A stretch of 64,000 nt of DNA, taken from assembly GCA_963555825.3 (NCBI GenBank), contig CAUVXB020000002.1, forward strand, positions 2,816,001-2,880,000, in the 5' to 3' direction. Positions 13,931 through 24,889 of the stretch are shown here, piece after piece. The notes beneath the pieces are model-generated. The model made no database searches. It saw nothing but the letters and a program-made list of their open reading frames with translations, and was not told the origin of the DNA. Numbering within the stretch: position 1 is the first letter of the stretch; every line of letters starts with the position of its first letter. This DNA is from Alphaproteobacteria bacterium (GTDB lineage: Bacteria; Pseudomonadota; Alphaproteobacteria; JAAXGF01). A program made the translations under genes and the position numbers.

Positions 13931-14428
13931 TTACTCGATCATGGAGAAAATGATCGCCGGTACCAACGGCTCGCCGGCCGGCTGAATCGCCTCGATGCAC
14001 ATATTGGCGTCGGGGTTGCTGGCCGACATCATCACTTCCAGCACGTCGCCCGCCTCCATGGGAACGATACCCTGCGAAATGATGACGTCCTTCGCCATGC
14101 TGCCTTCGTCCTGGCAGAGCTGCACGTTGGAGTTGGCGACATCCGTGCCGTTGACCCGCAGCCACAGGTCGAAGCAGCCGTAGGGCCCCCCGCCCTCGCG
14201 CCCGACTTGCGGCGCGGCGACGATCAGATAGGGCCCGGCCTCGCCGACGGTCACCTTGTTGTTCGCCAGCGTGATGCCGTTGGCGGCATCGACGATGTCC
14301 ATCTCCACCAGCTTGGGCGCCTTGCCCGGGCACTGGGTAACCGAAGAGGAGGCCTGCAAGTACTGGCCGGCGTGCGCAACGCTCACCGACGCGCCAAGAG
14401 CCGCCAATGTCATGACGAGTTTCTTCAT
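13931..14428 (-). CDS. Secreted protein, probable C1q/TNF-like beta-sandwich (BclA C-terminal-like)
   Basis: Signal peptide MKKLVMTLAALGASVSVAHA, motifs GPYLI..Q, LWLRVNG and AGDVLEV, and four Cys. Confidence 0.65.
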   Translation of the reverse strand: MKKLVMTLAALGASVSVAHAGQYLQASSSVTQCPGKAPKLVEMDIVDAANGITLANNKVTVGEAGPYLIVAAPQVGREGGGPYGCFDLWLRVNGTDVANSNVQLCQDEGSMAKDVIISQGIVPMEAGDVLEVMMSASNPDANMCIEAIQPAGEPLVPAIIFSMIE

Positions 14429-14592
14429 GAGTTCTCTACCTCGCTGTTTTGCCATTGCCGATACGATTCACCCGGTCCGGCCCGCCCGCGCCTTGGCAGG
14501 GATTGTGCCTGAGATTTCCCATTATGGACACCTTATCGGCGAGTTGATTATAACTCGGAACCGCTCGCATTGCAACTGGCTTGCGTCCTGCG

Positions 14593-15905
14593 TGTCGATA
14601 ACACGTGATATGGCCGGTCAATGTAACAAATGATCTGTCCGGCATTAGAACTCCTCCAGAAAGTGGCGGAGCTGATGCGCCGGACAGAGCAGTTACAGGG
14701 GTTGAGATTGATGAAGTTCGATGAGGTTTACGGACGCACCTACAGGGGTGAGTTGAGCCAGCTGGAGGCAGCCGAGATCCTGGGCATGTCCGAGCGCACG
14801 TTCCGACGCTGGCGCGATCGCTTTGAGGCCGAGGGCGCGGAGGGTCTTTACGACCGCCGCCTGGGTCGGGTTTCCGCGCGCCGCGCCGGGGTCGACGAGG
14901 TGGTGGCACTGTTGGATCTGTTCGATACCAGGTACCGGCATTTCACCGCCTGGCACTTCTGGGAGAAGCTGGTTGCAAAGCACGACGTCACGCGCAGTTA
15001 CAACTGGGTGCGGCTGACGCTCCAGGCGCACGGCCGGATCGCGCCGGCGCCGCGGCGCGGCGTGCACCGCCGCAAGCGGCCGCGCCGGCCGATGGTCGGC
15101 ATGATGTTGCACCAGGACGGCTCCGCGCACCAATGGGTGCCGGGTCAGTACTGGGACCTGATCGTGACCATGGACGATGCCACTTCGGAGATCTATTCCG
15201 CCTTCTTCGTCGCCGAGGAGGGCACCATGTCGAGCTTTGTGGCGCTGCTGGAGGTGGGGTCGGCCATGGGGCTGTTCTGCTCGCTTTATGCAGACCGGGC
15301 CTCGCACTATTGGCACACGCCGGAGGCCGGCGGCAAGGTCGACAAGGACAATCCAACCCAGGTCGGACGTGCCCTGCAGCAACTCGGTATTGAGCTGATC
15401 CCGGCCTATTCGCCGGAGGCCCGGGGCCGCTCGGAGCGCATGTTCGGCACCCTGCAGAAACGCCTGCCGCAGGAACTCGAGCTCGCCGGCATCACCGATA
15501 TGGCGGCCGCCAACCGGTTCCTGAAAGAGGACTTCCTGCCGGCCCACAATGCCCGCTTCGCCCGGCCGGCCGAGGACACAGGCTCCGCCTTCGTGCCGTT
15601 CGCCGGCAACCTGGCGGACATCCTCTGTGTGCAGGAGGACCGTGTGGTCGGCAATGACAACACGGTGCGCTACAAGAACTTGAGCCTGCAGATCCCGGCA
15701 GGCCGCCATCGCCACCACTACGTCAAGGCCAAAGTGAGTGTGCACGAATATCCCGACGGCGACCTTGCCGTCTTCCATGGCCAGCGCTGCCTGGCCCGCT
15801 ACAAGAAAGACGGCACGCCGATCGAAAGCAGCGAAAGGCGGGCCGCGTGATCCGCTTCGACGCGACCGGCCGGCGCTCTGCGGATAAGTGGACAGCTCGA
15901 CTGCG
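14593..15905 (+). mobile_element. ISNCY (IS1202-group) element, right end truncated
   Basis: TGT left end with repeated TGATMTGKCCGG boxes. The sequence is cut at 15905 by an IS256 IR fragment. Confidence 0.75.
14675..15850 (+). CDS. ISNCY/IS1202-type DDE transposase
   Basis: N-terminal HTH, LHQDGS, TMDDAT, LYADR and SPEARGRSER motifs. Confidence 0.9.
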   Translation: MRRTEQLQGLRLMKFDEVYGRTYRGELSQLEAAEILGMSERTFRRWRDRFEAEGAEGLYDRRLGRVSARRAGVDEVVALLDLFDTRYRHFTAWHFWEKLVAKHDVTRSYNWVRLTLQAHGRIAPAPRRGVHRRKRPRRPMVGMMLHQDGSAHQWVPGQYWDLIVTMDDATSEIYSAFFVAEEGTMSSFVALLEVGSAMGLFCSLYADRASHYWHTPEAGGKVDKDNPTQVGRALQQLGIELIPAYSPEARGRSERMFGTLQKRLPQELELAGITDMAAANRFLKEDFLPAHNARFARPAEDTGSAFVPFAGNLADILCVQEDRVVGNDNTVRYKNLSLQIPAGRHRHHYVKAKVSVHEYPDGDLAVFHGQRCLARYKKDGTPIESSERRAA

Positions 15906-15923
15906 GAGCTATTGTCAAAAGTT
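15906..15923 (-). repeat. Orphan outer 18 bp of an IS256 right IR
   Basis: GAGCTATTGTCAAAAGTT is identical to 16172-16189. Confidence 0.9.
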
Positions 15924-16171
15924 GACGGGGCGGTAAAAAGTTGTTGGCCGATGGCGTGCTTGTACAGGTCTTTGCGGTTCGGTGAAGAATATTTGCCTGT
16001 CTCCGCGTTGCTGGTGGATAAAACCTGATATTACCTACCCTTGGCTTCTCCTTGGCTTCGTTTTTTATGGTGCGATTGCCGCGCAGCGTCGGATATTGAG
16101 GCCGAGGGCACGCAGATTGACCACGTAGCGCATGGCCGGCATGCCGCGAATGCGTAGGTGAGCCAGGTTCA

Positions 16172-17546
16172 GAGCTATTGTCAAAAGTTGTGTATGGGCT
16201 GATCATGCGGCGGCGCGATCCTGGCGTTCTCCATCTACGAATTTGACGCCGCGAATGATCTCGGCGAGATGGTTCGATCCATCGAGTTTTCTCCATTTTC
16301 TCTGAGCGCACTGGCATAGTTTGAAGACCATGGCCATCGCCGTCTTGCGCGACAGGCAGCCCTTGGTCCGGTAGGTGCGCAGACGAACCGTGGCGAACGT
16401 GCTCTCGATGGGGTTGGTCGTGCGTACATGCTTCCAGTGCTCGGCGGGGAAGTCGTAGAACGTCAGCAGGACGTCGCGGTCCTTGGCCAGGCAGGCCGCG
16501 GCCTTGTCGTACTTCGGCCCGTAGGCTTCCAGGAAGAAGTCGAAGGCGCTCTCGGCATCCTTCCTGGTTTCGGCCATCCAGATGTCTTGCAGGCGCCCCT
16601 TGGCTTTCTTTTGCAGACCCTTGGGCAGCTTGTTCAAGACGTTGCCCGTCTTGTGAACCCAGCAGCGTTGCTCGCGGGCGCCTGGGTAGACTTGGCGGAG
16701 CGCCTTCCAGAAGCCGAGCGCGCCGTCGCCGAGCGCCAGTTGCGGACCCATTTCAAGGCCGCGCCGCTTGAGATCGAGCAGAACTTCGAGCCAGGACTGC
16801 TCACTTTCGCGATAGCCGTCGGCGATGGCGATCAGTTCCTTCTGTCCCTTGTCCGTGGCCCCGACGATCACCAGGATGCACTGCTTCTCTTCCTCCATGC
16901 GGGCGCTGAAATAGATGCCGTCCACCCAGAAATAGACGTAGCGCTTGGCCGTGAGGTCGCGCCGTTGCCAGCGCTCCGCCTCAACCCCCCAGACCTCTTT
17001 CAGCCGGGTGATCGTGGAGGCCGAAAGCCCCGGCGCGGAGCTCCCCAGGAGCGCCGCCAAGGCTTCCCCGAAGTCGCCGGTGGAAATGCCCTTCAGATAC
17101 AGCCATGGCAAAAGGTCTTCCAGGCTCTTGGCGCGGCGCAGATAGCGCGGCAGGATCGCCGACGTGAAGCGGATGGCGCCGTCCCCCCGGTCCCGCACAC
17201 GGGGTTGGCGCACGCTCACCGGGCCGATCCCGGTCTGGATGAAGCGTTCCGGCAGATATCCATTGCGGACAACCCGGCGGCGGCCGGCGGCGTCAACAAG
17301 CGCCGCATGGCTACCCAAAAACACGGAGACCTCGGCCTCAACGGCTTGGGCCAACAACTCGCGAGCTCCAGCTTGTAGGACTTCCGTCAACGGATCTTTC
17401 TGAAAATCAGATGGGTTTTGAAAAGCAACAACGGTATTCTCTTTCATGGCGTATCCTTCCTTGGCTTAGCTCAAGTGGTGACATCAACAATCACCAGGAT
17501 ACGCCGCCTTCATTTCAACGCCGTACACAAGATTCGGTTATAGCTC
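16172..17546 (-). mobile_element. IS256-family element, copy 1 (complete, 9-bp TSD)
   Basis: IRs GAGCTATTGTCAAAAGTTGTGTA / GAGCTATAACCGAATCTTGTGTA, with direct repeat CCAGGTTCA at 16163-16171 and 17547-17555. Confidence 0.96.
16203..17447 (-). CDS. IS256 (Mutator-type) transposase
   Basis: RNGY, FWVDG, GDGALG, QRCWVH and RTTNPIES motifs. Confidence 0.95.
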   Translation of the reverse strand: MKENTVVAFQNPSDFQKDPLTEVLQAGARELLAQAVEAEVSVFLGSHAALVDAAGRRRVVRNGYLPERFIQTGIGPVSVRQPRVRDRGDGAIRFTSAILPRYLRRAKSLEDLLPWLYLKGISTGDFGEALAALLGSSAPGLSASTITRLKEVWGVEAERWQRRDLTAKRYVYFWVDGIYFSARMEEEKQCILVIVGATDKGQKELIAIADGYRESEQSWLEVLLDLKRRGLEMGPQLALGDGALGFWKALRQVYPGAREQRCWVHKTGNVLNKLPKGLQKKAKGRLQDIWMAETRKDAESAFDFFLEAYGPKYDKAAACLAKDRDVLLTFYDFPAEHWKHVRTTNPIESTFATVRLRTYRTKGCLSRKTAMAMVFKLCQCAQRKWRKLDGSNHLAEIIRGVKFVDGERQDRAAA

Positions 17547-19108
17547 CCAGGTTCATCTGGTACTTTAATCGCGACATGGTCGCTTCTATGCCGGCCCGCC
17601 ATCTGTAGACGTTGCGGAAGGCATCGCTTTGTTCATAAAGCCGGCGCTTTTGGTTGGCAGCCCTGGCCGGGGTATATTGAAAGCGGGAAAATTGGCCGTC
17701 ACGCTTGGCCGCCTGCACGGGACATCGCAGTATATCGGGACATTTTTGGCAGATGGAGAGGTCGAAACGGGCCTGCAGCTTGGCTTTGGCGAGCGAGGCT
17801 GAAACCGGTTCGACGTTATTGGGACAGCGCAAGACCAAGCCTTCTTCGTTGAGAGTGAAATCCTCCAACGTCAACCGTCCCGAGACGGCGCCTTTCGGCG
17901 GTCGTGCGGGCGCCACGAGATTGATGTTCTGTTCGCGCGTCAGAGCCATGTTGTCACTGGAACCGTAATGTGAATCACCCAGCATCACCGCCGGCGTCAG
18001 CGCGCGCTCGCTCAGATCATCCAGCGCATCGGCTAAGCGATGGCCGTCATGCACCGTCATCTTGTGGACCTCCACGTGGGTGATGAGGTCCGGTGTCGCG
18101 GCAACCGCCTCGTTACTGACATCTTCACAATAGGTTTCGACGATCTGCGCCATGTATCCTTGACCCTTGTGCGCGTTGTAGCTCGCGTCCGGGTCGGCCG
18201 GATTGCCGACGGTATCGCACGGCACATCCTTTGGATCTCGAATCGCGGCGCGCGTTGCGTCACGATCGCCATACTCATCATCAACGATCTCGAACTGATC
18301 GCGCAGAACCCTCTCCAGGATCGCAAAACTGAAAAGCTTTGCCGCCGCCGTGTCACGGAATTGCAGCACCAGGGCTAGGAGATACTGACCCGCTTCGCCG
18401 AGGCGCCGTTTTGAAACACTCGGCGCCGTATTCGCGAACGCGCCATTACCCTCGCGATCGACATAGCGGCGGATCACCTCCTTGCTGATCTGCTCGTGCA
18501 GACCGGGATGATATCGCTCAAGCTCACGGGCAAACTTCGAGATGCTCTCAACAACGATACCAAGTCGTGTCAGCGCCCGCATTGCCGAACGAAGGGCCGT
18601 CGAATCCATGCGTTGGTGGCTGGTATCGACAGAGAACCCCTGCACCAGCCGATCCGTCAAACACCGGAACAGCAATTCATCGAGACCTTGTTCGATAAAC
18701 AGACGGCGATAGTTGCGCAGGGTTTTCTCACAGAAATAGCTGTCCGCTTCGCTGCGCACGTCCAAGGCATAGTGCCACGCCATATTGAAGGCCAGGGCCT
18801 CGACGGTCTCTGCATCGCTCAGATCGTGCAGCTGCTGCAAAAGCAAGACCCCGATGACAACGTGTAGATCCTTCGATGGTCGGCCCATGCGTTCATCAAG
18901 GTGACGGCAAAGATCGTCAACCGGAAGTTCGACAAGCAGATGGTTCCGAAAAACCCCGGCCCAGGATTGCTCCATCAGGCGCCGACGTTTGTCCCCGAAA
19001 TCGGACCAGCGATCAAACAATTCCCCAGTCCGTCGGTCGCGTAAAGTAAACATGCACAATTATAATCCAGCCGACTCTCATGAGGAATCGACTTTTTACC
19101 GCCCCGTC

Positions 19109-20472
19109 GAATCTTGTGTACGGCGTTGAAATGAAGGCGGCGTATCCTGGTGATTGTTGATGTCACCACTTGAGCTAAGCCAAGGAAGGATACGCCATGA
19201 AAGAGAATACCGTTGTTGCTTTTCAAAACCCATCTGATTTTCAGAAAGATCCGTTGACGGAAGTCCTACAAGCTGGAGCTCGCGAGTTGTTGGCCCAAGC
19301 CGTTGAGGCCGAGGTCTCCGTGTTTTTGGGTAGCCATGCGGCGCTTGTTGACGCCGCCGGCCGCCGCCGGGTTGTCCGCAATGGATATCTGCCGGAACGC
19401 TTCATCCAGACCGGGATCGGCCCGGTGAGCGTGCGCCAACCCCGTGTGCGGGACCGGGGGGACGGCGCCATCCGCTTCACGTCGGCGATCCTGCCGCGCT
19501 ATCTGCGCCGCGCCAAGAGCCTGGAAGACCTTTTGCCATGGCTGTATCTGAAGGGCATTTCCACCGGCGACTTCGGGGAAGCCTTGGCGGCGCTCCTGGG
19601 GAGCTCCGCGCCGGGGCTTTCGGCCTCCACGATCACCCGGCTGAAAGAGGTCTGGGGGGTTGAGGCGGAGCGCTGGCAACGGCGCGACCTCACGGCCAAG
19701 CGCTACGTCTATTTCTGGGTGGACGGCATCTATTTCAGCGCCCGCATGGAGGAAGAGAAGCAGTGCATCCTGGTGATCGTCGGGGCCACGGACAAGGGAC
19801 AGAAGGAACTGATCGCCATCGCCGACGGCTATCGCGAAAGTGAGCAGTCCTGGCTCGAAGTTCTGCTCGATCTCAAGCGGCGCGGCCTTGAAATGGGTCC
19901 GCAACTGGCGCTCGGCGACGGCGCGCTCGGCTTCTGGAAGGCGCTCCGCCAAGTCTACCCAGGCGCCCGCGAGCAACGCTGCTGGGTTCACAAGACGGGC
20001 AACGTCTTGAACAAGCTGCCCAAGGGTCTGCAAAAGAAAGCCAAGGGGCGCCTGCAAGACATCTGGATGGCCGAAACCAGGAAGGATGCCGAGAGCGCCT
20101 TCGACTTCTTCCTGGAAGCCTACGGGCCGAAGTACGACAAGGCCGCGGCCTGCCTGGCCAAGGACCGCGACGTCCTGCTGACGTTCTACGACTTCCCCGC
20201 CGAGCACTGGAAGCATGTACGCACGACCAACCCCATCGAGAGCACGTTCGCCACGGTTCGTCTGCGCACCTACCGGACCAAGGGCTGCCTGTCGCGCAAG
20301 ACGGCGATGGCCATGGTCTTCAAACTATGCCAGTGCGCTCAGAGAAAATGGAGAAAACTCGATGGATCGAACCATCTCGCCGAGATCATTCGCGGCGTCA
20401 AATTCGTAGATGGAGAACGCCAGGATCGCGCCGCCGCATGATCAGCCCATACACAACTTTTGACAATAGCTC
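19109..20472 (+). mobile_element. IS256-family element, copy 2 (first 11 bp of left IR missing)
   Basis: Begins GAATCTTGTGTA (IRL nt 12 onward) flush against the IS1182-like end. The right IR ends at 20472. Confidence 0.93.
19197..20441 (+). CDS. IS256 transposase
   Basis: Protein identical to 16203-17447. Confidence 0.95.
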   Translation: MKENTVVAFQNPSDFQKDPLTEVLQAGARELLAQAVEAEVSVFLGSHAALVDAAGRRRVVRNGYLPERFIQTGIGPVSVRQPRVRDRGDGAIRFTSAILPRYLRRAKSLEDLLPWLYLKGISTGDFGEALAALLGSSAPGLSASTITRLKEVWGVEAERWQRRDLTAKRYVYFWVDGIYFSARMEEEKQCILVIVGATDKGQKELIAIADGYRESEQSWLEVLLDLKRRGLEMGPQLALGDGALGFWKALRQVYPGAREQRCWVHKTGNVLNKLPKGLQKKAKGRLQDIWMAETRKDAESAFDFFLEAYGPKYDKAAACLAKDRDVLLTFYDFPAEHWKHVRTTNPIESTFATVRLRTYRTKGCLSRKTAMAMVFKLCQCAQRKWRKLDGSNHLAEIIRGVKFVDGERQDRAAA

Positions 20473-20648
20473 CGTTCCTGACCGCGATACGCGAACAATA
20501 CGGAATAATCGAACGGCACCACATGGCGTAATGCCTGAACCAGTACAGCCGGAAGCCGTGGCGTGTCTTCCGCCGAAATAACCTGCGCAATTTGGCCATG
20601 CCAACTGCGGGTATCCAATTTTTGGATCGTGTTTGGGCCATTAGTCAT
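20473..20648 (-). pseudogene. N-terminal fragment of a probable LuxR-type regulator, cut by IS256
   Basis: MTNGPN...WHGQIAQVI...ALRHVVPFDYSVLFAYRGQER resembles the sensor N-terminus of LuxR-HTH regulators. Confidence 0.55.
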
Positions 20649-20865
20649 GGCTGGCGGTAATATCCCTTCTCCAGTGTCAATGGCGGAGCAAAAAGGGACC
20701 ACCTCGGCGGTGTAAGAAGGGACCGCTTGGCGGCTGCGGGCTTGTCCCCGTAGTCCACGGGAGGGCCCCGCGCGCGACGCGGCGTGCCCTCAACAGGCTG
20801 ACGCGGCGGCGCGCGCGGGAGGGACCTGTGGGCCCACGGGGTCAAGCGTGGGCTGGGTGGTCGGT

Positions 20866-21630
20866 TCAGTTAGCAGTCGGGGTTTGACGCCTGCGGCTCT
20901 GGTTGAGCCTGTAGCTGTCACCGTTCATCTCGAGGATGTTGACGTGGTGGGTGAGGCGATCGAGGAGCGCGCCGGTGAGGCGCTCGGAGCCGAACACCTC
21001 GGTCCATTCGTCGAAGGGCAGATTGGTGGTGACCAGGGTCGAGCCCCGCTCGTAGCGTTGGCTGAACACCTCGAACAACAGCTCGGCGCCGGTCTTCGAC
21101 AGCGGCACGAAGCCGAGTTCGTCGACGATCAGAAGCTTGTAGGTGGCGAGCTTCTTCTGGAACCTCAGCAGCTGCTTGTCATCGCGGGCCTCGATGAGTT
21201 CGTGGACCAGCGCGGCGGCGGTGATGAAGCCGACCGAGAGGCCCTTCTGGCAGGCCGCCAGGCCGAGACCGAGGGCGATGTGGGTCTTGCCGGTCCCACT
21301 GTTGCCGAGCGCGATGAGGTTCTCGCGGCGCTCGATGTACTCGCAGCGGGCCAGCTCCAGGACCAGCGCCTTGTTGAGCGAGGGGATGACCTTGAAGTCG
21401 AAGCTGTCGAGGCTCTTGACCACGGGGAAGCGCGCCGCCTTGATGCGCCGCTCGACCATGCGGCGCTCGCGGTCGATCAGCTCGAGCTCGGCGAGTCTCA
21501 ACAGGTAGCGGACGTGATCGACGCCTTCCGAGGCGCACTGCCGGGCGATCTTGTCGTACTCGCGCAGGAAGGTCGGCAGCTTCAGCGTCTTGAGGTGGTG
21601 GGCGAGCAGCACTTGCGGTGTGTCGGTCAT
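20866..21630 (-). CDS. istB: IS21 ATPase IstB
   Basis: Protein identical to copy 1. Confidence 0.95.
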   Translation of the reverse strand: MTDTPQVLLAHHLKTLKLPTFLREYDKIARQCASEGVDHVRYLLRLAELELIDRERRMVERRIKAARFPVVKSLDSFDFKVIPSLNKALVLELARCEYIERRENLIALGNSGTGKTHIALGLGLAACQKGLSVGFITAAALVHELIEARDDKQLLRFQKKLATYKLLIVDELGFVPLSKTGAELLFEVFSQRYERGSTLVTTNLPFDEWTEVFGSERLTGALLDRLTHHVNILEMNGDSYRLNQSRRRQTPTAN

Positions 21631-22289
21631 GCGCCGAGCCCCGACAGCAGGCTCATGTACGACTTGGCGGACGTCATCGCGACCCGGGCGCGCGGCAGAT
21701 ACGGATAGACGTCGAGGTTGAGCCTGGGCGGCCGCCGCTCGATGCGGCACAGTACCAGGTGCTTCACCGCATCAAAGCCGATTGCGCCGAGCCGCAGGGC
21801 GTCGCCGACCGCACCCTCGACCTCCTCGAGCCGGAAGGTCTCCAGTAGACGGAGCACCTGGACGTACTCGCGCTTGCCTGCCTTGCCCATACGAGCTTCG
21901 AGGAGCCGCCGCAGAGTGATGAAGGCCTCGGGCAGGTCCCAGCCCGCCAATGGCGCGGCCTGGTCGAGGGCGCCGATCTTCTGCTCGATCAAGGGCAGGT
22001 AATGCAGCGGGTCGAAGATCAGGTCCTCGCTGTCGTAGGACCGGCGGTGCCGGGCGATCACCTCGGCCCCGCAGCTGATCACCACCTCATCGACGTAGCC
22101 CCGGATGAGCACCTCACGGTGGCCGTAGGCCACGGGCACGGAATAGTCGTTGCTGCGGTAACGCACCAGCGACAGCGAACTCGCCCGTCCAGGGCGCTTA
22201 TCGCAGGCATCATAGGGAGCAGGCGGCAATGGCAAGAGAACTTGACGATCCCGCTCGAGACGCTCGCCGATGGTCTCCTTATATGAGGC

Positions 22290-22595
22290 GTTTGCTGTCA
22301 AGGTGGATTTAATCTACGCCACATGATCGTCTCTTCCATTGGTTATGGCTTTGTATCCAGGGCGGGTCTTGCGATGAGTTCCGTGTTTCGTGCGAGTGAT
22401 CGCATCACCTTATATCCGGCAGCTCCGATCCGGCTTGCCACAATGCTGTATACATGGACCATCACAGGACGGGGATGGGACTAATCTTGTGGACGGCACC
22501 TTCGCCAAGGAGACATGCAGTCACACATCCAACCTGCCAACAAGCGTTCCCATCGGGGAATGAAGCCCGTTAGAACGCTGAGCTGATCCGCAGTC
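22290..22595 (-). ncRNA. Putative bridge/seek RNA of IS110 element B
   Basis: Contains GUCUCCUU (22507-22514) and CCACAAG (22486-22492) matching both halves of the target, plus AGCAU (22443-22447) and AUAUAAG (22409-22415) matching the element ends. Boundaries are approximate. Confidence 0.82.
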
Positions 22596-23729
22596 CTATT
22601 TGACGACAGCACCCACCGGGATCAGCCCGGTTTCCAGATACCGCCAAAGCGCGATCGCCAGTTTGCGGGCCAGGGCGACGATCATGACGCGCCTGATGCG
22701 CCCCTTCTGACCTTGGGTGCGGTCATGGAACCACTGGGTCAGAGCGCTATCGGGTTGATGGCGGACCCAAAGCCATGCGGCTTCGATCATGGCAACCCGT
22801 GCCAGCCGATTGCCCGCCTTGGAGATGCCTTGGCTGCGGCGCCCGTCGCCGCTGTCATAGGCACTGGGCGTGATCCCGATATAGCTTGCCACCTGTCGGC
22901 GATTGGCGAACTGGCGATAATAGACTTCCCGTGCGAGCGTCGTGGATAAGGCCGGGCCGAGGCCCTTTAAGCGCAGCAGCTGGTGACGCTTGCTTTCCGT
23001 GGCCACACACGGTGTCGGCGCTTGATCACGCTCACGCTCGACCTCGACGATCTGCGCTTGGACCTGGGCCAGTCTCGCGATCTCCCGCGCGATCTCGCGG
23101 CCGAGACGGTCCGGCAGGGGTCGGCCGTCTCCGGTGACCAGCGCCGCCGGTGTCAAGGTCTTGTAGCGCGCCTTGACATTGATGCCGCGAATGCCCTGAC
23201 CGAATAGCAGACCCTTGATCCGGTTGATGTGGGCGGTTCGCTCGCGGACCAATCGGTCACGTTCCCGATGAGAGCGGCGAAGGTCCTCCTCCGCGACGCT
23301 CGGAATCACCACCATGGAGCAGACATGACGCTCGCCGCGGCACCAGGCGATCAGCGTATGAAGAATATTCTCGACATCGATGCGGTCGGTCTTCACCCGC
23401 CGCGCCCGGCGGTTGACCCGCAAGCTGGCCGGCTCCATGACCAGACACTCGATGCCGCGCTGCTCGAGGAACCGCGCCAACCAGAAGCCGTCGTAGCCGG
23501 CCTCGTAGCACAGCGTTATCGTCGGCGTTCGACCCGTCACCTTGACCACCCGGTCCCGCGCCGCGTCCAGCTTGGCCATCAGTCCTTCAGCGTCGCCGCC
23601 CTTGATCGGATGCAAGCTCGGATTGCCCCGCCCCGGAGCCTGGATCGCCAAAAGCCAGCTGTTCTTGCTCAACTCCAGTGCCGCATAAATAGCGTGTTCA
23701 TTGGAGGTCGATACCGGAAACTGTGCCAT
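22596..23729 (-). CDS. IS110 recombinase/transposase
   Basis: ALELSK, CYEAG, KTDRID, YDSG, ISKAGN and ALARKL motifs. Confidence 0.95.
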   Translation of the reverse strand: MAQFPVSTSNEHAIYAALELSKNSWLLAIQAPGRGNPSLHPIKGGDAEGLMAKLDAARDRVVKVTGRTPTITLCYEAGYDGFWLARFLEQRGIECLVMEPASLRVNRRARRVKTDRIDVENILHTLIAWCRGERHVCSMVVIPSVAEEDLRRSHRERDRLVRERTAHINRIKGLLFGQGIRGINVKARYKTLTPAALVTGDGRPLPDRLGREIAREIARLAQVQAQIVEVERERDQAPTPCVATESKRHQLLRLKGLGPALSTTLAREVYYRQFANRRQVASYIGITPSAYDSGDGRRSQGISKAGNRLARVAMIEAAWLWVRHQPDSALTQWFHDRTQGQKGRIRRVMIVALARKLAIALWRYLETGLIPVGAVVK

Positions 23730-24889
23730 CGTGTCGCTCCTTCTGATCGAGGTTGAAATAATCGAAGGAGCTTGAGGCTGCGTCCTTCAGCCTCATAGCA
23801 TCTTGTGGCCCCGCAGCCGCGCCGCCTGGCGCCGGCGGCACTGTTCGGCGAGAGCATCGTTGAGGGCCGCGAAGCTCTCGGCACGCGGGACGGGGACCAG
23901 GAAGTTCCGCCGGATGAAGCCGACCAGTCCCTCGACCTTGCCCTTGTCGTTGCCCTTGCCCGGCCGGCCGAACCTGTCCTCGAACAGATAGTGGGACTGA
24001 AGCTCCGTGAAGACGCGCGTTCGCTGCCGCTTCCCATCGCCCAGGATCCGGGCAACCGCCAGCTTGGTGTTGTCGTACAGGATGGATCGGGGGACGCCGC
24101 CGAAGAAGGCAAACGCCGCGTTGTGGCCATCGCAGAATGCTTCGGTCGTCTCCGCCGGATAGGCCGCAACAAAGCAACCATCACTGTGGGGAAGGTCGAA
24201 GGCAAGGAAGTGGATCTTCCGTAACGCGCCGCCGATCACCGCCATCGCTTCGCCGAAGTCCGCCTGGGCGTGACCGGGGGAATGGGAGAGTGGCACGAAC
24301 ACCTCACGCGACCGAAGCCCCTGCTCACGAACGTAGTCCTTCACGATGGTGTAGCCGCCCGTGAAACCGTACTCGTCCCGGAGGCGGTCGAAGATGCGCT
24401 TCGCAGTGTGCCGTTGCTTGCGGTGGCTGGTCCGATCGTCTTCCAAGATCCGATCGATGATTCCCGTGAACGGACCCAGCTTTGGCCGCCTCGGCGGCGC
24501 GCTTCGGCGATACCCTGGCGGCACCGAGAACGACAGCATCTTACGGACCGTCTTGCGGTCTACACCAAACACCCGCGAGGCCTCGCGGGTGCTCATCCCC
24601 TCGACATGACACGCCCGCCGAACCCGTGCGTACAACTCCACCCGATACATCCCCCCCGCCTTCCAGTCAGAGCAACCCTGACAGAAGGCTATACGCGGTC
24701 CCATTTTGGTCCGCCGCAGCCGGATCGACCGGCCGCTTCAGTGGGGGATTATTGCTCTGCCGTTCTCACCTGCCGTCGTAACAAAATCCTGCCTTGGAGC
24801 GGCCCATTGTCACGAATAGCCGATTTCGGCCGTTCGTCTCGACACAAAAAACGCACTAAATCAATGACTTAGATTTTCCATACCAGACC

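Follow-up and report, generated by a model that had tools for sequence, protein, structure and literature searches.

The insertion sequences (ISs) IS4321 and IS5075, of the IS1111 group of the IS110 family, target the terminal inverted repeats (IRs) of Tn21-family transposons, as Partridge and Hall reportedly described in 2003. Elements of this group insert in one orientation and are not known to leave a classical duplication. IS231A, of the IS4 family, has a preferred target consensus within the terminal repeats of Tn4430; this target is symmetric, the shape of the flanking DNA contributes, and the element also inserts elsewhere. The source studies for IS231A and Tn4430 are said to be those of Mahillon from 1987 and of Hallet from 1991 and 1994. 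Elements of the IS4321/IS5075 type are described in an excerpt of PMC11208160 as using a DEDD recombinase with a bridge RNA guide. In an extract of PMC5678879, Siguier et al. are credited with the observation that some IS1182 members target palindromic sequences, and IS1272 is described there as replacing stem-loop targets with no duplication.

The IS1182-like element described here, denoted ISX, lies in the window, the whole 64,000-nucleotide stretch of alphaproteobacterial DNA that was analysed. ISX inserts almost only at one fixed position within the end repeats of IS256 elements. It works like IS4321/IS5075 and is not a member of that group. In both systems the IS lands at a set point within the terminal IR of a different transposon family (the Tn21 family for IS4321/IS5075), and the host transposon is a multicopy, mobile landing pad. 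Unlike IS4321/IS5075, ISX has a DDE transposase, perfect 18-bp IRs, and a 7-bp duplication, and it inserts in both orientations; of the traits of an IR-hunter, the fixed IR position is present at 74/74 termini, whereas a DDE enzyme stands in place of the DEDD recombinase and orientations of 20:17 in place of a single one. Like IS231A, ISX is a DDE element with a target consensus inside another transposon's terminal repeats, but the two differ in family, consensus, and duplication length, and 74 of 74 ISX termini lie in IS256-type IRs. With the IS1182 family it shares the domains DUF772, DDE_Tnp_1, and DDE_Tnp_1_6, and its core target, like the targets of some IS1182 members, is palindromic, in its case as a consensus. 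In contrast to IS1272, it gives a clean 7-bp duplication and removes nothing, as judged by virtual excision. A full-text literature search, with ISfinder and TnPedia outside its scope, turned up no published account of IS256 IRs as the target of an IS1182-like element. The pairing is a variant, with no earlier report found, of the kind known as IR-hunter from IS4321/IS5075 on Tn21.

Organization of the locus

Table 1. Nested elements at the ISX locus, in window positions.
Feature	Position	Strand	Details
Neighbouring ISNCY-type IS	14593..15905	+	Transposase ORF 14630-15850, 406 aa; left outer flank of the structure
IS256 right-IR outer half, nt 1-18	15906..15923	+	Class '1R-out'
ISX nt 1-248, left end	15924..16171	+	IR 15924-15941; BLAST to 30+ other copies
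IS256 copy A, complete, 1375 bp	16172..17546	-	Inside ISX; transposase 16203-17447
ISX nt 240-1801	17547..19108	-	Transposase ORF 17515-19059; right IR 19091-19108
IS256 copy B, left-IR nt 12 to right-IR nt 1	19109..20472	+	Transposase 19197-20441; class '1L-in'

ISX spans 15924-19108 in the window and is bounded by perfect 18-bp IRs, GACGGGGCGGTAAAAAGT at 15924-15941 and its complement at 19091-19108 (Table 1). An A-tract-GT lies equally far from the tip in these IRs and in those of IS256. Its native length, without the inserted IS256, is 1801 bp, because a 1375-bp IS256 and a 9-bp duplication (CCAGGTTCA at 16163-16171 and 17547-17555) split the window copy. The inserted IS256, copy A, has 100% identity to more than 13 full copies, and copy B is effectively 100% identical to inverted copy A over ~1.37 kb. 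The ISNCY-type neighbour, assigned by NF033594 (341 bits against a cut-off of 250), has 4 genomic copies, and the IS256 tip with its ISX junction follows identically after 2 of the 4.

The two flanks of ISX come from different IS256 ends. Positions 15906-15923 read GAGCTATTGTCAAAAGTT, the same as 16172-16189 and the complement of 20455-20472 (direct reading and repeat search), and AAAAGTT at 15917-15923 is nt 12-18 of this right IR. On the other side, the sequence from 19109, GAATCTTGTGTACGG..., belongs to the opposite IS256 end and starts at nt 12 of it, and GAATCTT at 19109-19115 is nt 12-18 of the left IR of copy B. The preliminary description had read the left flank as nt 1-18 of an IS256 right IR and the right flank as beginning at left-IR nt 12, and both assignments hold, the former through the repeat identity with 16172-16189 and the latter from 19109. 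Its further points, that the ISX-adjacent 7 bp differ (AAAAGTT and GAATCTT) yet both occupy IR nt 12-18 and that the outer flanks (..TCGACTGCG and CGTTCCTGA..) are no duplication pair, are likewise confirmed.

The ISX transposase

The transposase of ISX contains the Pfam domains DUF772, DDE_Tnp_1, and DDE_Tnp_1_6, each above its gathering threshold, and its homologues carry the same three-domain set. The top NCBIfam family is IS1182 (NF033551), with a score of 147.1 bits that falls below the curated cut-off of 270 and an alignment covering profile positions 31-458 of 488. Identity to IS1182 transposases annotated by PGAP is ~27% over ~90% of the length (E of 1e-27 to 1e-12). Such scores suggest either a distant IS1182 clade or a sister group. 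Residues D152, D362, and Y485/R488/E492 do not vary among 13 sequences of 56-100% identity; together these residues form a predicted DDE triad whose glutamate lies within a Y-2-R-3-E signature. This signature is known from the IS4 and IS5 literature. A search of the PDB with the transposase sequence found no relative.

The native 536-aa frame is intact in 29 of 36 genomic ISX matches. In the window copy, native residues 1-506 of the 536 are kept and the C-terminus is replaced via the IS256 insertion; with its last 30 transposase residues cut off in this way, the copy is probably dead. As part of the best explanation of the locus, ISX is proposed to be an autonomous DDE IS of a clade distantly related to IS1182.

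Target site of ISX

The window genome comprises 6.04 Mb in 2 contigs with hundreds of IS copies. All 74 genomic ISX termini adjoin IS256-type IR halves at the register 11/12-18/19 (slashes mark the junctions); 69 are exact halves, of three IR types, and 5 are variants. A perfect 7-bp duplication of IR nt 12-18, with both halves from the same IR, is found in 28 of the 33 paired ISX copies, and hybrid flanks occur in 5/33, the window copy included. The orientations are balanced (20:17, p = 0.74). Across the 6.04 Mb, the ~110 IS256 IR ends are the only ISX sites used, a pattern that chance could not plausibly produce. The claim of the preliminary description that ISX targets IS256 ends is borne out by this single register, and the flank tabulation that it called for yields the same flanks at the other copies and none in unrelated sites (74/74). 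Of the two duplication lengths that it had offered, 7 bp stands, and 9 bp, which would include the terminal G/C, is ruled out by sites in relatives, such as L018 and L022, that have non-C/G bases beside the duplication. Target choice is read here from fixed copies, and the specificity could look greater than it is if selection in an IS-saturated genome removes insertions at other places.

The target elements belong to the IS256 family by their transposase (NF033543, 320 bits against a cut-off of 150; Pfam Transposase_mut, 199 bits) and have imperfect terminal IRs on direct reading. Duplications of 8-9 bp flank 18 of the 21 ISX-free IS256 copies. When 24 ISX copies are excised in silico together with one duplication, 17 perfect IS256 elements of 1375 or 1378 bp result, and 12 of these 17 have their own 8-9-bp duplication. 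ISX occupies ~1/3 of IS256-1 ends and ~2/3 of IS256-2 left ends. For IS256-2, the left IR is occupied in 10/15 cases and the right IR in 0/16 (Fisher p = 7e-5); the vacant right IR (GAGCTATGTCC GAAAGTT GG...) matches the target consensus. Sequences like this right IR serve as ISX sites in other genomes (L054, L057).

Relatives of ISX with 50-99% transposase identity have the same target site in 19 of 21 further genomes, which span Alphaproteobacteria, Planctomycetota, and Latescibacterota. Among the 55 ISX copies in other genomes with both ends defined, 34 have at least 5/6 matches to GAGNTAT at the exact register, against a background of 510/87,530. Inner half-sites, which were chosen by no motif, show C(-1), A(+2), and T(+6) at 0.8-1.8 bits; in the 33-site logo the tip-side positions 1-7 were oriented by the motif itself, which inflates their information content. 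A transposase search of 40 relatives of the host genome gave matches in 2 only, both weak or distant.

Insertions of ISX are independent events, because identical haplotypes sit in different IR types and orientations. Many copies at one register could also arise with no real targeting, from one or a few chance insertions into IRs that were then amplified by an IS256 and ISX composite transposing as a unit. Three copies with a rare G10A in the ISX IR do share one junction class, and IR18-ISX-IR18 structures bordered by 9-bp duplications are present at 2 loci of a Latescibacteria genome and on a plasmid of Microvirga; the IS256-2 bodies, identical or with private changes, are uninformative as a test of composite transposition. 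Such amplification is nevertheless barely credible, given that at least seven junction classes (three IR types in both orientations, plus other sites) all share the register, that the commonest haplotypes are each present in 3 of them, that the other genomes share the site with different IS256 relatives, and that the chance of landing in ~110 positions of 6 Mb is ~2e-5 per insertion. The data already speak against descent of every junction class from one ancestral junction.

Sequence-directed and protein-directed targeting

The best explanation, and one that is probably correct, is that the ISX transpososome picks the ~19-bp outer sequence of the IS256 IR and cuts it with a 7-bp stagger. The transpososome would have a stringent preference for the ~19-bp motif GAGnTATnnnC/RAnnnTY/G, which in these bacteria makes up the outer part of IS256-family terminal IRs. 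ISX accordingly lands, in one orientation or the other, between nt 11/12 and 18/19 of the IR and duplicates nt 12-18. The core C/RAnnnTY/G has two-fold symmetry, which a symmetric transpososome whose two ends are identical should prefer, and the one-sided GAGnTAT supplies extra specificity. We infer that the ISX transposase itself reads DNA sequence or shape.

A protein may instead provide the guidance, with ISX recruited by IS256 transposase on the IRs or by an IS256 end that is nicked or synapsed. Every ISX copy in the window genome sits in an IR whose element has a transposase that appears to be active, an IS256 transposase gene lies beside ISX at 18 of 56 loci outside Amylibacter, and the exact register from the IS256 tip is compatible with a protein ruler. 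Several sites speak against recruitment and make it highly improbable. One site in the window genome (C1 863122/866356) is without an IS256 transposase within a few kb, and in the tandem ISX-7 bp-ISX arrays at L014 and L047 a half-site is reused whose IS256 tip is replaced by an ISX end.

A further contrary case is a metagenome-assembled genome (MAG) of Amylibacter with 21 loci of 98%-identical ISX. No IS256 transposase lies within ~2.4 kb at any of the 21 loci, and a genome-wide profile search gave 0 matches to NF033543. The motif is enriched at the register nonetheless, with a mean best match at 19 ISX sites of 4.2/6 versus 2.0 for the background (p < 5e-5), and also versus a core-matched background. 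Because this MAG without an IS256 transposase match still has motif-enriched ISX sites, sequence-directed targeting to GAGnTATnnnC/RAnnnTY/G appears most likely. Such look-alike sites may be what is left of IS256 elements that have since been lost. The duplication is missing in 11 of the 19 copies, which reflects either much recombination or assembly noise.

Origin of the hybrid copy

The window copy is most likely a recombinant of two insertions at IS256 ends, as judged from its flanks and haplotype. One ISX would have inserted into an IS256 right IR and another into a left IR. Being identical, the two ISX copies would then have undergone homologous recombination, which joined the right-IR outer half to the left-IR inner half. 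The insertion of IS256 copy A into ISX would be a separate event, before or after the recombination. Both presumed parental classes are present in the genome with the ISX haplotype of the window: ISX in a right IR with the L end outward (C1 194613, C1 1657723) and ISX in a left IR with the L end outward (C1 1924407). These parents and four further hybrids support the earlier proposal of two insertions followed by recombination, and recombination between ISX copies is common because those four other hybrids exist. The reciprocal product that was to be sought is found in 0 of 33 paired ISX copies. Its absence fits a deletion-type exchange, short of proof.

Hybrid flanks could also come from an assembly mis-join of identical repeats, with no biological recombinant behind them. 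Nested repeats make up the 4.5-kb locus, dozens of other copies match them at 100% identity, and none of the short contigs from four sequencing runs crosses the locus; these contigs contain the uninterrupted ISX form in 4/4 runs, with alternative IS256-type flanks as loose ends. A mis-join is improbable nonetheless, since an assembly of 2 contigs despite hundreds of IS copies implies long reads, the same genome holds four other hybrids of differing types, and hybrids are present in other assemblies too. Two other rearrangements were rejected. An IS256 circle or tandem IRR-IRL junction does not fit two IR pieces that run in the same direction and are superimposed in register rather than tip-to-tip, and an inversion between IS256 copies A and B would break ISX, which is colinear apart from the insertion.

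Possible consequences for IS256 mobility

According to the preliminary description, targeting of its ends would immobilise IS256. The outer 18 bp of a split IS256 IR may nevertheless still be usable, as the three composites from other genomes hint. A loose pattern search, with reading of one IS256 locus, found no intact IRs matching the Latescibacteria composites. It is tentatively possible, though unlikely, that the ISX clade both disables and exploits IS256, the tip-ISX-tip unit being a non-autonomous IS256 derivative moved in trans. Such a unit would arise when ISX enters both IRs and the IS256 body is lost, leaving the 18-bp tips outside ISX. If so, ISX would gain a second, borrowed transposition mode via the IS256 transposase, and an IS256 with one split IR would keep moving as a 3.2-kb composite, which might account for the occupation of just one IS256-2 IR.

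Significance

ISX is a clear example from nature of a transposon family that has specialised on the ends of another, and it achieves this through a conventional DDE transposase, in place of an RNA-guided recombinase. That an enzyme of the DDE type should have a ~19-bp target is of mechanistic interest. For annotation, the 'truncated' IRs of IS256 elements beside ISX are split, not degraded. Conservation of this specialisation extends from Alphaproteobacteria to Planctomycetota and Latescibacterota, and the trait amounts to a safe-haven strategy in which IS256 ends are multicopy, mobile, and non-essential targets. Hybrid ISX copies are a source of rearrangements, and ISX is likely to act as a brake on the expansion of IS256.

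Nested insertion sequences at the window locus

The interval 14,200-21,000, read from the sequence and from repeat tables, is a nested IS structure in which ISX, a 1801-bp IS1182-like element, is interrupted by an IS256 copy. The 7 bp bordering ISX are AAAAGTT on one side and GAATCTT on the other, corresponding to nt 12-18 of two different IS256 terminal inverted repeats (IRs). The 18-nt tip at the left of ISX has the same sequence as the first 18 nt of the IS256 copy starting at 16172, and also equals the complement of the final 18 nt in the copy ending at 20472. A 9-bp duplication (CCAGGTTCA) lies on both sides of the internal IS256. Because the structure reads as nt 12-18 of two IRs around ISX, the preliminary description was exact in placing both 7-bp flanks in the same register of different IRs, and direct reading bears out that the outer flanks form no duplication pair. 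Nested IS elements saturate the genome.

Features of the window locus and ISX arrangements in other genomes (L numbers, ISX loci; tip18, 18-bp IS256-type tip)
Feature	Position	Strand	Remarks
ISNCY-type IS	14593-15905		directly left of IS256 tip and ISX; 4 copies in genome
IS256 right-IR nt 1-18	15906-15923		GAGCTATTGTCAAAAGTT
ISX	15924-19108		IRs 18 bp, perfect (GACGGGGCGGTAAAAAGT)
IS256 inside ISX	16172-17546	minus	complete, 1375 bp; interrupts ISX after nt 248
Second IS256	19109-20472	rightward	begins at left-IR nt 12 (GAATCTTGTGTACGG...)
IS-like repeat	from about 20674 (region to about 24000)		dozens of near-identical copies on both contigs
Further ~1.5-kb repeat	about 22273-23808		apparently breaks the preceding repeat
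Tandem ISX pair	L014 644-4252		only the 7-bp duplication between
Tandem ISX pair	L047 1164-4770		only the 7-bp duplication between
tip18-ISX-tip18	L090, L091 (Latescibacteria genome G041)		9-bp repeats TATACTTGA, and GGAAACTGA with a 2-nt offset
tip18-ISX-tip18	L099 2434-4253 (Microvirga sp. VF16 plasmid NZ_CP069355.1)		9-bp repeat ATGGAGTGG

ISX insertion across the genome

ISX had been proposed to be directed at IS256 ends. When its own genome (6.04 Mb; contigs C1 and C2) is searched with the ISX tip and the flanks are tabulated, all 74 ISX termini adjoin half of an IS256-type IR in the same register, which confirms the observation and supports its interpretation genome-wide. Exact halves of three IRs, namely both IRs of IS256-1 and the left one of IS256-2 (72% DNA identity between the two elements), account for 69 termini. 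The other 5 are variants: a copy with 1 nt deleted, a copy with 1 nt inserted, a third GAGCTAT-type tip, and two halves of a GAACTAT-type site. Scripted pairing of termini gave 34 pairs, from which one spurious 257-kb pairing was excluded to leave 33 real copies. A perfect 7-bp duplication and both halves of one IR flank 28 of these, and 5, the window copy included, are hybrids flanked by halves of two different IRs. In silico deletion of 24 simple ISX copies, with one duplication each, recovers 17 IS256 elements in perfect form; 12 have an 8-9-bp duplication of their own. Both orientations of ISX are in use (20 versus 17, p = 0.74).

The two commonest haplotypes among the 24 full-length 1801-bp ISX copies occur in three junction classes each, and there are at least 7 classes in the genome; the copies therefore represent repeated independent insertions. 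Some composite movement or local duplication may also have occurred: the rare variant G10A of the ISX left IR appears in three copies (C1 362140, C1 493416, and C1 1654569), all joined at that end to the inner half of the IS256-1 left IR.

Occupancy of IS256 IRs by ISX is high. ISX never occupies the IS256-2 right IR (GAGCTATGTCCGAAAGTTGGTGACGG; 0 of 16 genome-wide; an example of the element is at C2 3268654-3269942), as against 10 of 15 left IRs of this element counted by outer halves (Fisher p = 7e-5). In other genomes, ISX sites closely resembling the IS256-2 right IR are in use. At loose ends of two sequencing runs (X1 and X2), ISX is joined to GAAAGTTGGTGA.

State of IS256 inverted repeats in the ISX-bearing genome
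IR	Intact	Outer half next to ISX	Inner half next to ISX
IS256-1 left	25	13	15
IS256-1 right	27	14	10
IS256-2 left	5	10	7
IS256-2 right	16	0	0

Origin of the window hybrid

The window ISX is 100% identical to the copies at C1 194613, C1 1659523, C1 1924407, and C2 1906212. Both parental classes, with the L end joined to the outer half of a right IR or the R end joined to the inner half of a left IR, are present among them, which supports the earlier proposal of two insertions followed by recombination. Homologous exchange between two such copies would produce exactly the flanks of the window copy. The reciprocal product, which the preliminary description had named as something to look for, is absent among the 33 paired copies of this genome. 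The ISNCY-tip-ISX left junction recurs at C2 3363431 (ISNCY copy C2 3363432-3364762), so that 2 of the 4 ISNCY copies lead into an identical junction of IS256 tip and ISX left end. The adjoining ISX is a hybrid in both; recombination has thus been frequent among these repeats. All runs found for the source yield short contigs, and the hybrid is described as assembled; in four such runs, only the uninterrupted form of ISX is seen, with other IS256-type flanks as loose ends.

Target recognition

A profile of 13 ISX homologues identifies 77 loci in a species-representative genome collection, and both ends are defined for 55 copies, in 53 loci of 21 genomes. Of the 55 copies, 34 agree with GAGNTAT in 5 or more of 6 positions at the exact IR register, versus 510 of 87,530 background positions. 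This site holds in 19 of the 21 genomes, including those of Planctomycetota, such as Singulisphaera acidiphila, and of Latescibacterota, in which the transposase is about 50-55% identical. An IS256 transposase gene stands beside ISX in 18 of the 77 loci. The target consensus from 33 distinct sites with duplication is GAGnTATnnnC|RAnnnTY|G. Inner half-sites, chosen without any motif, independently give C, A, and T at positions -1, +2, and +6, respectively, so that the core is two-fold symmetric.

Targeting could be directed by sequence or by protein. An Amylibacter MAG contains 21 loci of 98%-identical ISX, no IS256 transposase lies within about 2.4 kb of any of them, and the IS256 family model finds no match in that genome while control genomes gave matches. 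Its 19 end-defined sites have a mean best motif match of 4.2/6 against a background of 2.0 (p < 5e-5), at the right distance, and the enrichment also stands against background positions with an RAnnnTY core. In the genome of the window, one ISX occupies an IR-like site whose surroundings lack an IS256 transposase. The tandem ISX-7 bp-ISX arrays of L014 and L047 still use a half-site with an ISX end as its outer part, and this end likewise terminates in C. Together, the Amylibacter enrichment, the site lacking a nearby transposase, and the arrays favor direct reading of target DNA by the ISX machinery. A junction created by one ISX insertion can itself serve as a target. A possible lead for direct recognition is that nt 12-18 of the ISX IR hold an A-tract and then GT, as far from the tip as AAAAGTT is in the IS256 right IR.

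Among the same Amylibacter loci (L016-L049, OZ250147.1), no matching 7-bp duplication accompanies 11 of the 19 ISX copies, reflecting either extensive inter-copy recombination or assembly noise in the MAG. In Singulisphaera, the right flank of L076 has ISX adjoining a degraded ISX end.

Transposase and comparison with known elements

The native ISX transposase has 536 amino acids, of which the window copy retains only residues 1-506, and contains DUF772, DDE_Tnp_1, and DDE_Tnp_1_6 domains. Its top NCBIfam match is IS1182, for which it scores 147 bits where the cut-off is 270, and its identity to annotated IS1182 transposases reaches only about 27%. The target element is a genuine IS256 family member (NF033543, 320 bits; cut-off, 150). 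Cys412, Cys437, Cys440, and Cys446 are invariant (residues ~412-446; L004:1501-3111); in the catalytic triad, they come after the second D and before the E. This four-cysteine region may be a metal-binding insertion and is a candidate target-reading module.

IS4321/IS5075 target the IRs of Tn21-family transposons, and IS231A is associated with Tn4430; in function, these are the known cases nearest to ISX. Compared with the IS1111 cases, ISX is unlike in chemistry (ISX is a DDE element), duplication, and orientation. Full-text literature searches gave no report of an IS1182-like/IS256 pairing. In PMC5678879, some IS1182 members are described as targeting palindromes, and IS1272 as replacing a stem-loop target with no duplication. 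ISX, in contrast to IS1272, makes a clean 7-bp duplication.

Fate of split IS256 elements

Three tip18-ISX-tip18 units lie, each as a whole, between 9-bp direct repeats. That they are composites moved by the IS256 transposase (hitch-hiking) seems unlikely; no 9-bp flanking repeats surround the three out/out hybrids of the window's own genome. The units could instead be relics of an IS256 hit in both IRs, with the body lost through ISX-ISX recombination as an in situ deletion, and an IS256 with ISX in both IRs is present at C1 883113-888067. An IR split by ISX should disable that end of IS256, though the 18-bp tip stays outside.
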